Assembly: GCF_003334335.1 (NCBI RefSeq)
Contig: NZ_QOWQ01000015.1
DNA length: 64,000 nt
Origin: Escherichia coli
GTDB lineage: Bacteria; Pseudomonadota; Gammaproteobacteria; Enterobacterales; Enterobacteriaceae
Strand: one strand, 5' to 3'
Positions 37,716 to 39,295 of the stretch are shown here, in pieces. The notes under the pieces were generated by a model. It saw only the letters and a program-made list of their open reading frames with translations. It was not told the origin of the DNA and did not search any database. Each line of letters begins with the position of its first letter. Within the stretch, counting starts at the first letter, position 1. The position numbers and the translations under genes were made by a program.

Positions 37716-38567
37716 CTGATGGAGAGGGGCGGTGCTGCCTCTCTCATTCAGGTCATTTATATTAGTCCTTGGCTATTTCGGTTATATTAAATAAGAACTC
37801 TATAAATTTTTATTCTTCGTTGGCTCCATACGTGTCTTGCTACATCACTGTTCAGGAGCATTTAAATATTATTTGTAGAACTGAGTGGCAATTATCGCAG
37901 ATAATGCTTAATTCATCATCTTAGTTCATGTTTGAGCGATTTTTGATAGTCAAAACCCCCTCTGGTGCCATACTTTTCTCATAAATATTTTTAAAATCTA
38001 TAGCTAACAAATATTATGCAAAGATAATGGACTAGCATCATTGTCAGTATCATTCATTTACTGCTCTGTATGTTATGAATAATTATGTTGTATGTTTGCT
38101 CTTAAACCGTGGGAAGGAGGCTATAATGGTTGCCAATATTAATCTCATTAAACAAGAAAGTTATTCTGTTGTTAATTTAGAAAAACAACTTTCCCGAACT
38201 GTTACCAACAAAATTATAACGATGAGCAAGTAAAGACCGGTTGGTGGCAGTACTGACCGGTCTGTGATGAAAGATTAATTTCACCTTAAATCCTGGTGCT
38301 GTTAGGATGCTGACGTTTTTCGGCTACACCATTCAGATTATGCAAATAAATATCTCTGAATATAATATATTCATAGCACCCATAATTCATCCTGGGCGAT
38401 AACTAAACCATTTTTGAGTAATAAATGAAACAACTGCAACACTCTTATTATTTCTGGAAAACGCCTCGCAAAAACAAAACAACATGCAAAAATCCGCTTT
38501 TTTTAAATGATTTTCCGGCGTAATTTTCGCACATACATTAATGAGTAATATATGTAAGGTATTGGTA

Positions 38568-38786
38568 ATGGCGATGAATACGGTTTTTCTTCATTTATCA
38601 GAAGAGGCAATTAAACGGCTGAACAAGCTTCGGGGCTGGCGTAAGGTTTCACGATCTGCAATTTTACGCGAAGCGGTAGAGCAATATCTGGAACGTCAGC
38701 AATTCCCGGTGCGTAAAGCAAAGGGAGGCAGGCAAAAGGGGGAGGTAGTTGGTGTTGATGATCAGTGTAAGGAGCATAAGGAATGA
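38568..38786 (+). CDS. yiiE: Ribbon-helix-helix (CopG-like) protein YiiE
   Basis: Start placed at ATG 38568 (MAMNTVFLHLSEEAIKRLNKLRGWRKVSRSAILREAVEQYLERQ..., 72 aa); paralogous to yiiF. Confidence 0.8.
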   Translation: MAMNTVFLHLSEEAIKRLNKLRGWRKVSRSAILREAVEQYLERQQFPVRKAKGGRQKGEVVGVDDQCKEHKE

Positions 38787-39027
38787 CAAAAATTTTTCAT
38801 TCTTGAATATAAAAAACAGATGCCCTTATTCTGGTATTAATACAAGGCTGTTTTACTTGAACTTATAATAACTGCAACTGTTACATCATATCTGGAAAAC
38901 GCCTCGCAAAAATAAAAAATGATGCGTAAATGAGCTTTCTTTAAAGATTCGGCAAGGGTACTTTTCTCTCCATAGATTCAAAAATGATATTGGCGAGATA
39001 TTTATGAACTCTCTGGCAGGTATAGAT

Positions 39028-39246
39028 ATGGGCAGAATTTTACTCGATTTATCGAATGAGGTGATTAAGCAACTTGATGATCTCGAGGTGCAGCGTAATC
39101 TTCCTCGTGCGGACCTATTAAGGGAAGCGGTAGATCAATACCTGATAAATCAATCGCAAACAGCAAGAACCAGTGTTCCTGGCATCTGGCAAGGGTGTGA
39201 GGAAGATGGTGTCGAATATCAGCGTAAGCTGCGCGAGGAATGGTAA
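39028..39246 (+). CDS. yiiF: Ribbon-helix-helix (CopG-like) protein YiiF
   Basis: Start placed at ATG 39028 ([39 protein letters not shown]..., 72 aa); clear paralog of yiiE (shared E-IK-L / R-LREAV-QYL pattern). Confidence 0.8.
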
Positions 39247-39295
39247 TGGGAAAAAATGATGTCAATCAGATTGCTGACAACGTGCGCGTTGTTCA

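Follow-up and report, generated by a model that had tools for sequence, protein, structure and literature searches.

Orphaned VapB-type antitoxin genes yiiE and yiiF behind predicted CRP-S sites in a decayed, strain-variable interval of Escherichia coli

The stretch of Escherichia coli DNA analyzed here (64,000 nucleotides; hereafter the window) covers the K-12-type region dtd-fabY(yiiD)-yiiE-yiiF-fdhE-fdoIHG. Between fabY and fdhE lies the interval 37716-39260, which carries two small ribbon-helix-helix (RHH) genes, yiiE and yiiF, each preceded by a homologous segment with an identical 21-mer. An earlier note on this DNA had described the interval as AT-rich, and its GC content (0.373, compared with 0.506 for the whole window) indeed lies below that of all 625 sampled 1545-nt segments, whose minimum is 0.374. 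The flanking genes fabY and fdhE have GC contents of 0.552 and 0.546, and the sub-stretch 37716-38567 falls to 0.342. Here we explored the identity of the two genes, the fate of their presumptive toxin partners and the nature of the repeated 21-mer.

The yiiF gene (39004-39246, plus strand) encodes a product of 80 aa from the RefSeq start, or 72 aa from the MGRILL start at 39028. PDB entry 2K5J is YiiF itself, and YiiF matches chain A of PDB entries 7BY2/7BY3, an 82-aa 'CopG family transcriptional regulator', from end to end (E=3e-29). This chain was deposited together with a 'Ribonuclease VapC', chain B, which in turn matches the PIN-domain protein of Enterobacter sp. kpr-6 (locus L080) with E=2e-64; we take the source of the complex to be Klebsiella pneumoniae. 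In Enterobacter sp. kpr-6 and in Superficieibacter (L055), orthologs of yiiF stand behind the same 21-mer-containing site as in E. coli and are followed by a PIN-domain gene. In both, as well as at the corresponding locus of one Escherichia genome (L106), the PIN toxin gene lies directly downstream with overlapping stop and start codons, an arrangement absent from the window.

In the window, no intact toxin open reading frame (ORF) follows yiiE or yiiF, but remnants of vapC follow yiiF. The 5' remnant (MVMGKND..., approximately 39240-39262, plus strand) starts in overlap with the yiiF stop, as in intact vapBC operons, and only its first 3-5 codons are recognizable by comparison with MVMLKGPVLFDTN in Enterobacter sp. 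kpr-6 (MVMGKND versus MVMLKGP). The 3' remnant LEVVTRNTRDGVVTPYEL, followed by a stop (39483-39539, plus strand), represents the last 18 codons of vapC; in a small tblastn search with the Enterobacter VapC it gave 14/23 identities (E=3e-6), and it also aligns with the C-terminus of the L106 PIN protein. Between the two remnants, in place of the middle of vapC, sits a pair of repetitive extragenic palindromic (REP) elements (39291-39373) within a strain-variable region, detected as sub-threshold Rfam matches to naRNA4 and ES036, both of which we take to be REP-derived families. On the strength of the ortholog and structure matches together with these remnants, we assign yiiF as the vapB of a VapBC module whose PIN toxin gene was destroyed, with its toxin-binding tail intact but orphaned in K-12. 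Since only fragments of vapC remain, the K-12 genes are relics of the family and not a working module. The earlier statement that no toxin follows either gene thus holds as far as intact ORFs are concerned, whereas its corollary, that the genes have no assignable target, does not: both are of VapB type, vapC is present in relatives, and a broken vapC pseudogene persists here.

The second gene, yiiE (38568-38786, plus strand; 72 aa), is predicted to encode a paralogous RHH antitoxin of the VapB type, whose C-terminal tail has decayed and whose toxin gene is missing. YiiE matches the Pfam family RHH_1 (1.6e-11) and shares 40% identity with YiiF over 58 aa (BLASTP, E=3e-12), in agreement with the paralogy proposed earlier. 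The tail of YiiE aligns in frame with that of YiiF but lacks the conserved W, Y, L, and W, and the yiiE TGA stop falls at the final TGG of yiiF, its last Trp codon. The distribution of the YiiE family seems limited to Escherichia and Shigella. The connection of YiiE to VapB is indirect and runs through L106, where a single RHH gene (3001-3219) lies beside an intact 124-aa PIN gene (PF01850) at the same locus and is a chimera of yiiE and yiiF: sequence identity is 95% to yiiE over the first 117 nt and 89% to yiiF over the remainder, so that the N-terminal half of YiiE is there part of a VapB. The crossover falls in the sole well-conserved coding block, GAAGCGGTAGAnCAATAyCTG. The same chimera occurs in a further locus (L107, 3001-3225) in which vapC has decayed. 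We therefore regard yiiE, from these alignments, as a probable duplicate of vapB whose toxin-binding tail would have decayed after the toxin was lost. As a separate observation, the L106 chimera amounts to an apparently viable swap of the DNA-binding domain of a VapB.

The similarity of the two units extends upstream of the coding regions. The 21-mer CTGGAAAACGCCTCGCAAAAA occurs exactly at 38454-38474 and at 38892-38912, within two plus-strand segments that a repeat search returned as 73% identical over 100 nt without gaps: the yiiE promoter segment (38429-38528), kept across yiiE alleles, and the yiiF promoter segment (38867-38966), whose left edge is a mosaic breakpoint at 38866. When the interval was shuffled with its dinucleotide composition preserved, the longest exact repeat never exceeded 17 nt (22 observed) and the best 100-nt ungapped match never exceeded 50 (73 observed), placing the similarity far beyond chance. 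The coding regions are less alike (identity 0.53 overall and 0.34 at third codon positions), and the upstream segment is therefore better kept than the genes. Both the homology of the upstream segments, with their identical 21-mer, and the duplication of a gene-plus-promoter unit, as put forward in the earlier note, are borne out by these comparisons.

Read on the opposite strand, the 21-mer is TTTTTGCGAGGCGTTTTCCAG, i.e., TGCGA-N6-TTCCA. This is an exact match to the E. coli CRP-S motif, 5'-T4G5C6G7A8-6N-T15T16C17C18A19-3' (PMC6728893, quoting Sinha 2009), which is described in the same source as non-palindromic and orientation-independent; a CRP-S site is one at which cyclic AMP (cAMP)-bound CRP acts as an activator only in concert with the competence co-activator Sxy (TfoX). 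The two cores TGCGAGGCGTTTTCCA lie on the minus strand at 38455-38470 and 38893-38908, inside the respective 21-mers, and read TGCGA-GGCGTT-TTCCA in both copies, with the TGCGA half-site (C6 instead of T6) at 38466-38470 and 38904-38908 and the weaker half-site TTCCA exactly 6 bp away, the whole being non-palindromic. Enterobacterial CRP-S half-sites without C6 always have G6 (Cameron and Redfield, PMC1635313), and the yii sites likewise carry G6 where C6 is absent. The consensus occurs in the window twice, at these two sites, against an expectation of 0.17. As positive controls we used MG1655 promoters, among which the sxy site TGCGAGGCTCTTTCCG and the yicR (radC) site TGCGAGGCGCTTTCCA are both nearly identical to the yii sites. 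The copy at yicR (radC)-dfp was the decisive lead, because radC belongs to the gamma-proteobacterial competence regulon (PMC1635313).

Conservation across genera is in line with a functional site. Aligned yiiF promoters from three genera, represented by four genomes (two Escherichia alleles plus Superficieibacter and Enterobacter), have 20 invariant positions among the 21 of TCTGGAAARCGCCTCGCAAAA while their flanks diverge. Conserved in this alignment are the CRP-S site, a -10-like GTAyTTT (part of the block GCAAGxGTAyTTT) whose distance from the site contains no gaps, and the ribosome-binding region. In diverged yiiE alleles, both TGG and TCGCA persist with unchanged spacing. Given the consensus match on the minus strand and the closeness to the sxy and yicR sites, the 21-mer is most likely a site for activation by Sxy and CRP rather than an operator for YiiE or YiiF, and these findings suggest that the CRP-S motif is longer than its published core.

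Two observations concern the variability of such sites. In MG1655, the promoters of several genes reported to respond to Sxy show near-palindromes of the weak half-site instead of TGCGA, namely TGGAAGCGCGATTCCA upstream of higB (L104), GGGAAAGCAGATTCCG upstream of ppdD (L099), and AGGAAGGAAGATTCCA upstream of hicA (L103); what E. coli CRP-S sites have in common may therefore be the TGGAA/TTCCA half. Within yiiF itself, at 39143-39158, the block encoding QYL(I/E)NQS reads CTGATAAATCAATCGCAAA, and its counterpart at position 3116 of L106 reads CTGGAAAATCAATCGAAAA; with one to two mismatches to the core, this CRP-S-like block inside the coding region is probably a coincidence.

Downstream of the two sites, putative -10 elements can be read from the sequence. 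For yiiE this is TAATTT (38521-38526, plus strand), and for yiiF it is TACTTT (38959-38964, plus strand), which is TATTTT in Enterobacter and Superficieibacter and belongs to the block conserved at fixed spacing. With transcription starting at the positions that these hexamers imply, the centers of both CRP-S sites would fall about 71 bp upstream of the start, near -71, a class I CRP position. A sigma-70 consensus scan returned no strong promoter at the expected positions, a result that fits activator-dependent promoters but is in itself uninformative.

As a plausible mechanism, when Sxy is made and cAMP is high, CRP and Sxy, bound some 71 bp ahead of a weak sigma-70 promoter with a poor -35 and a -10 of TAATTT or TACTTT, would switch on yiiE and yiiF, and H-NS would otherwise keep the AT-rich region silent. 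The RHH proteins themselves would probably only repress their own promoters, via operators other than the 21-mer. Control of toxin-antitoxin (TA) genes through Sxy and CRP-S has been reported for hicAB P1, higBA, chpSB, and the Haemophilus influenzae toxTA (PMC11951105). Taken together, we consider it probable that yiiE and yiiF are relic VapB antitoxin genes, silenced by H-NS and activated by Sxy through CRP-S sites.

Several points weigh against this interpretation. The ten specified bases of the consensus are expected about nine times by chance in a 4.6-Mb genome, by simple arithmetic, and the argument for CRP-S therefore depends on the extended similarity and the conservation. In a quick scan, the promoters of ppdD and hofM contained no close match to the same core (at best three or more mismatches); E. 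coli CRP-S sites are thus heterogeneous, and a match alone is no proof of function. Both -10 hexamers are weak, placement of the sites at a class I position is conjectural, and occupancy by H-NS in vivo could block activation. The CRP-S/Sxy assignment of yiiE and yiiF is a prediction from sequence comparison, and YiiF matches RHH_1 only weakly (0.0093), although it aligns with chain A of 7BY2 over its full length. Sinha et al. 2009 reportedly contains a list of the Sxy-induced genes of K-12. Our search of the open literature, which excluded Sinha et al. 2009 and the supplementary table of Cameron & Redfield 2006, found no link of Sxy or CRP-S to yiiE or yiiF.

Other explanations of the repeated block were weighed against the same evidence. 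The earlier note had suggested that YiiE and YiiF bind the 21-mer, i.e., that it is an operator for autoregulation by one or both proteins. RHH antitoxins usually repress their own promoters, and the 21-mer lies about 100 nt upstream of each gene, as such a role would allow; however, it matches CRP-S exactly, it contains no short boxes repeated in direct or inverted orientation, and the predicted DNA-reading strands of the two proteins differ (TVFLHL versus RILLDL) although the 21-mers are identical. The motif also occurs at sxy, at yicR, and next to unrelated genes at fetched loci where no yiiE or yiiF homolog was found, and we regard binding by YiiE or YiiF as very unlikely. A repeat between paralogous units could also be a functionless trace of recent duplication or gene conversion, all the more as the units stand in tandem and recombination between them has occurred. 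This we consider highly improbable, because the upstream segments remain 73% identical with an exact 21-nt core while the genes have fallen to 53%, and because the core is invariant in the orthologous promoters of other genera, whose flanks have diverged.

Two further readings concern the block itself. As a sigma-54 promoter, it would present TGG and GC at the -24/-12 spacing (TGGAAAACGCCTCGCA compared with TGGCAC-N5-TTGCA), and even diverged yiiE alleles (TTTGGATGCAGTCTCGCA) retain GG and GC ten bases apart (GG-N10-GC). Beyond this spacing, nothing fits the TGGCAC-N5-TTGCW pattern; no yiiD, yiiE, or yiiF site appears in the text or tables of the published chromatin immunoprecipitation (ChIP) sequencing (PMC4591121) or of the RpoN genomic SELEX (PMC8743547), the sigma-54 site associated with dfp is a different sequence, and no gene for an enhancer-binding protein was found nearby. 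Assignment as CRP-S, by comparison, covers every conserved base, including TCGCAAAA, and we attach next to no weight to a sigma-54 promoter. The repeated segment might instead be a recombination or attachment site for small cassettes in an integron-like array, since the breakpoints of presence and absence fall at or within the repeat (38866, 38911) and the motif adjoins many different small modules. However, no second copy flanks any insert examined, and comparison of filled and empty cybC-nrdG loci places the motif about 120 nt inside a ~710-bp relBE insert and not at its edge. No integrase is present among the annotated genes of the fabY-fdhE loci examined, and ordinary homologous recombination of one paralogous segment with another explains the breakpoints, as in the L106 chimera; an attachment site accordingly seems hardly likely to us.

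Other features in and around the repeat were considered and set aside. A leader peptide or small ORF over the 21-mer is not conserved: the 32-codon ORF at 38425-38523 has no counterpart in copy 2, the SGKRLAK frame has no start codon, and the minus-strand ORFs lie in differing frames. As for an RNA element, Rfam at E<=1 gave only REP-related matches, all outside the repeat, and no hairpin conserved in the repeat was seen by eye. In addition, a 22-nt direct repeat (CATTTTTGAGTAATAAATGAAA / CATTAATGAGTAATATATGTAA, 82% identical) at 38409-38430 and 38536-38557 brackets the yiiE promoter, its second copy sitting between the putative -10 and the ribosome-binding site of yiiE. This repeat may represent the actual operator of YiiE, although in AT-rich DNA such a match could also arise by chance. 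A candidate operator for YiiF is GATATT-N6-GATATT at about 38987-39004.

The surrounding interval has a mosaic history. Part of it is matched in all complete E. coli genomes (5426/5426), but at least 80% of it is present in only 1982 of the 5426. This patchy distribution, together with the AT-richness, supports the horizontal origin proposed in the earlier note, and the association with H-NS suggested there also has support, as yiiE is H-NS-bound in two ChIP data sets (PMC5797941). A low GC content, patchy distribution, and tabulated H-NS binding are thus found together, as for H-NS-silenced foreign DNA. Overexpression of SlyA raises yiiE 2.5-fold (PMC5797941). As part of the interpretation judged probable above, the interval would be a decayed, strain-variable islet of horizontally acquired TA DNA between fabY and fdhE.

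The modules between fabY and fdhE vary by strain and include an alpha/beta hydrolase gene, a 103-aa RelE/ParE-type toxin gene with nadS, a 92-aa ORF, yiiE, an opposite-strand DUF6708 gene pair, yiiF, and a 604-aa ORF, the last being split into 297 + 304 aa in O157; in one strain the whole region is deleted via IS1. In some strains, such as C9 (L004, 3235-4848), a gene for a DUF6708 membrane protein and a 246-aa gene lie on the opposite strand between yiiE and yiiF and diverge from the yiiF CRP-S promoter region. Positions 36701-38190 of the window align at 98% with positions 1465-2954 of L006, and the AT-rich stretch 37716-38126 (plus strand), upstream of a truncated orphan gene, is common to the O157-type and L108-type architectures. 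Because K-12 matches O157 up to 38190 and about 2 kb are then absent, the ORF at 38127 (38127-38190, plus strand) represents the first 21 codons of the 604-aa gene, cut by the ~2-kb deletion at 38190/38191. Its N-terminus MVANINLIKQESYSVVNLEKQ is identical to L006 from position 2890, and RefSeq annotates it as a pseudogene without a C-terminus. The 604-aa ORF is uninterrupted in L108/L109 (L108, 492-2306); its counterpart in L006 spans 2890-4704, and the gene is restricted to Escherichia and Shigella. The 604-aa protein matches no Pfam family, its O157 halves (297 and 304 aa) match no NCBIfam family, and its C-terminal half has no meaningful sequence match in the PDB. It contains the motif GCKSAKDRT, which we take to resemble CKSGKDRT, the CX5R active-site loop of the SopB/IpgD inositol phosphatases. 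A 'constitutive promoter' peak for RpoS in genomic SELEX, assigned to the yiiD>yiiE spacer (PMC5493296), converts to about position 37856; this lies in the AT-rich stretch just past fabY, ahead of the truncated 604-aa gene and away from the yiiE promoter.

Three short contigs are filed under distant taxa, L082 under Bacillus coahuilensis, L066 under 'uncultured Robinsoniella', and L016 under 'uncultured Clostridiales'. The YiiE and YiiF sequences encoded on the first two share 87-100% identity with the E. coli proteins, and the third has a yiiF-less E. coli-type arrangement with a vapC remnant; all three look like contamination of those assemblies.

Beyond yiiE and yiiF, we scanned one genome per species for the 19-mer CTGGAAARCGYCTCGCRAA and found 88 loci. 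About 50 of these belong to Enterobacteriaceae and represent about ten unrelated contexts; a single genome often holds several of them, and the 19-mer occurs in either orientation with respect to the neighboring genes, which fits the reported orientation independence of CRP-S. The remaining loci, mostly single matches in GC-rich sequence of unrelated taxa, we read as chance. At fabY-fdhE, the exact 19-mer stands beside VapBC and beside the 103-aa HigB-like toxin/NadS pair, which the 21-mer motif also precedes in other strains. At cybC-nrdG it accompanies RelB/DinJ-RelE, in an insert present in 443 of 5426 E. coli genomes and within which the motif travels. It further adjoins a HigBA-like pair (HigB-like toxin and helix-turn-helix (HTH) protein) next to ilvA in E. 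whittamii and E. albertii, a CcdAB pair in Phytobacter with weak NCBIfam support, and two more RelE-like/HTH pairs, one of them in an Enterobacteriaceae isolate (L027). After a yjbB-like gene, the 19-mer accompanies CcdAB and also a HigB-like/HTH pair. Contexts without TA genes comprise yicR, a family of ~150-aa proteins, a rhuM-like gene, and a phosphotransferase system (PTS) gene. The ~150-aa proteins (L018, L023, L052, and relatives) adjoin the 19-mer in Enterobacter, Leclercia, and Lelliottia, are mutually homologous (E 1e-8 to 1e-19), and have no Pfam or NCBIfam match. In sequence family A, a LexA-box-like CTGG-N8-ACAG lies about 20 nt from the 19-mer, hinting at joint SOS and competence control.

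In all, at least six to eight modules with different toxins have the 19-mer immediately in front of them, and in this plain listing the adjacency to TA genes looks like enrichment. One possible reading is that CRP-S is a portable promoter element that recurs in mobile type II TA cassettes across Enterobacteriaceae, a proposal that we advance tentatively and with somewhat less than even confidence. If true, the Sxy competence program would also be a broad TA induction program, and TTTGCGAGGCnnTTTCCAG, the extended motif, would carry more information than the published consensus of 10 bases.

These results would give two long-standing 'y-genes' of K-12 a concrete identity as orphaned VapB antitoxins, with a predicted regulator, Sxy plus cAMP-CRP, and would explain the absence of a toxin. 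Across strains, they lay out a stepwise decay series of a single TA locus, from intact vapBC through chimeric vapB and broken vapC to a lone antitoxin. They also lend sequence support to a little-explored tie between the enterobacterial competence regulon and TA modules.

CRP-S sites and orphan VapB antitoxins are both known kinds, so the interval is not a new kind of system but an ordinary, if informative, relic. Its resemblance to integron cassette arrays with TA modules lies in a row of small same-strand modules, several of them TA, each behind a shared block; it goes no further than resemblance, as no integrase was seen, the block has no attC-like inverted-repeat structure, and it is not placed at cassette edges. 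The closest structural counterpart is the VapBC complex 7BY2/7BY3, whose chain A shares with YiiF the C-terminal GxWQxCEEDGxEYQRxLRxEW tail and with YiiE, whose tail is degenerate, only the RHH half; the complex has its VapC partner, whereas K-12 has no functional VapC. Among CRP-S sites, that of the sxy (tfoX) promoter (Jaskolska & Gerdes 2015; Sondberg et al. 2019, PMC6728893) has the same asymmetric form, TGCGA-N6-TTCC(A/G), and shares 14 of 16 core bases with the yii sites, among them GGC at the start of the spacer. Whereas the sxy site has been validated by experiment and controls a gene for a regulator, the sites of yiiE and yiiF are predicted and would drive relic antitoxin genes in H-NS-bound DNA. 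Finally, hicAB P1 of E. coli and toxTA of Haemophilus influenzae are, like the yii genes, type II TA genes with an upstream CRP-S site (PMC11951105), but those modules are intact, whereas the yii toxin genes are lost or broken, so that here only antitoxin-type repressors would be induced.

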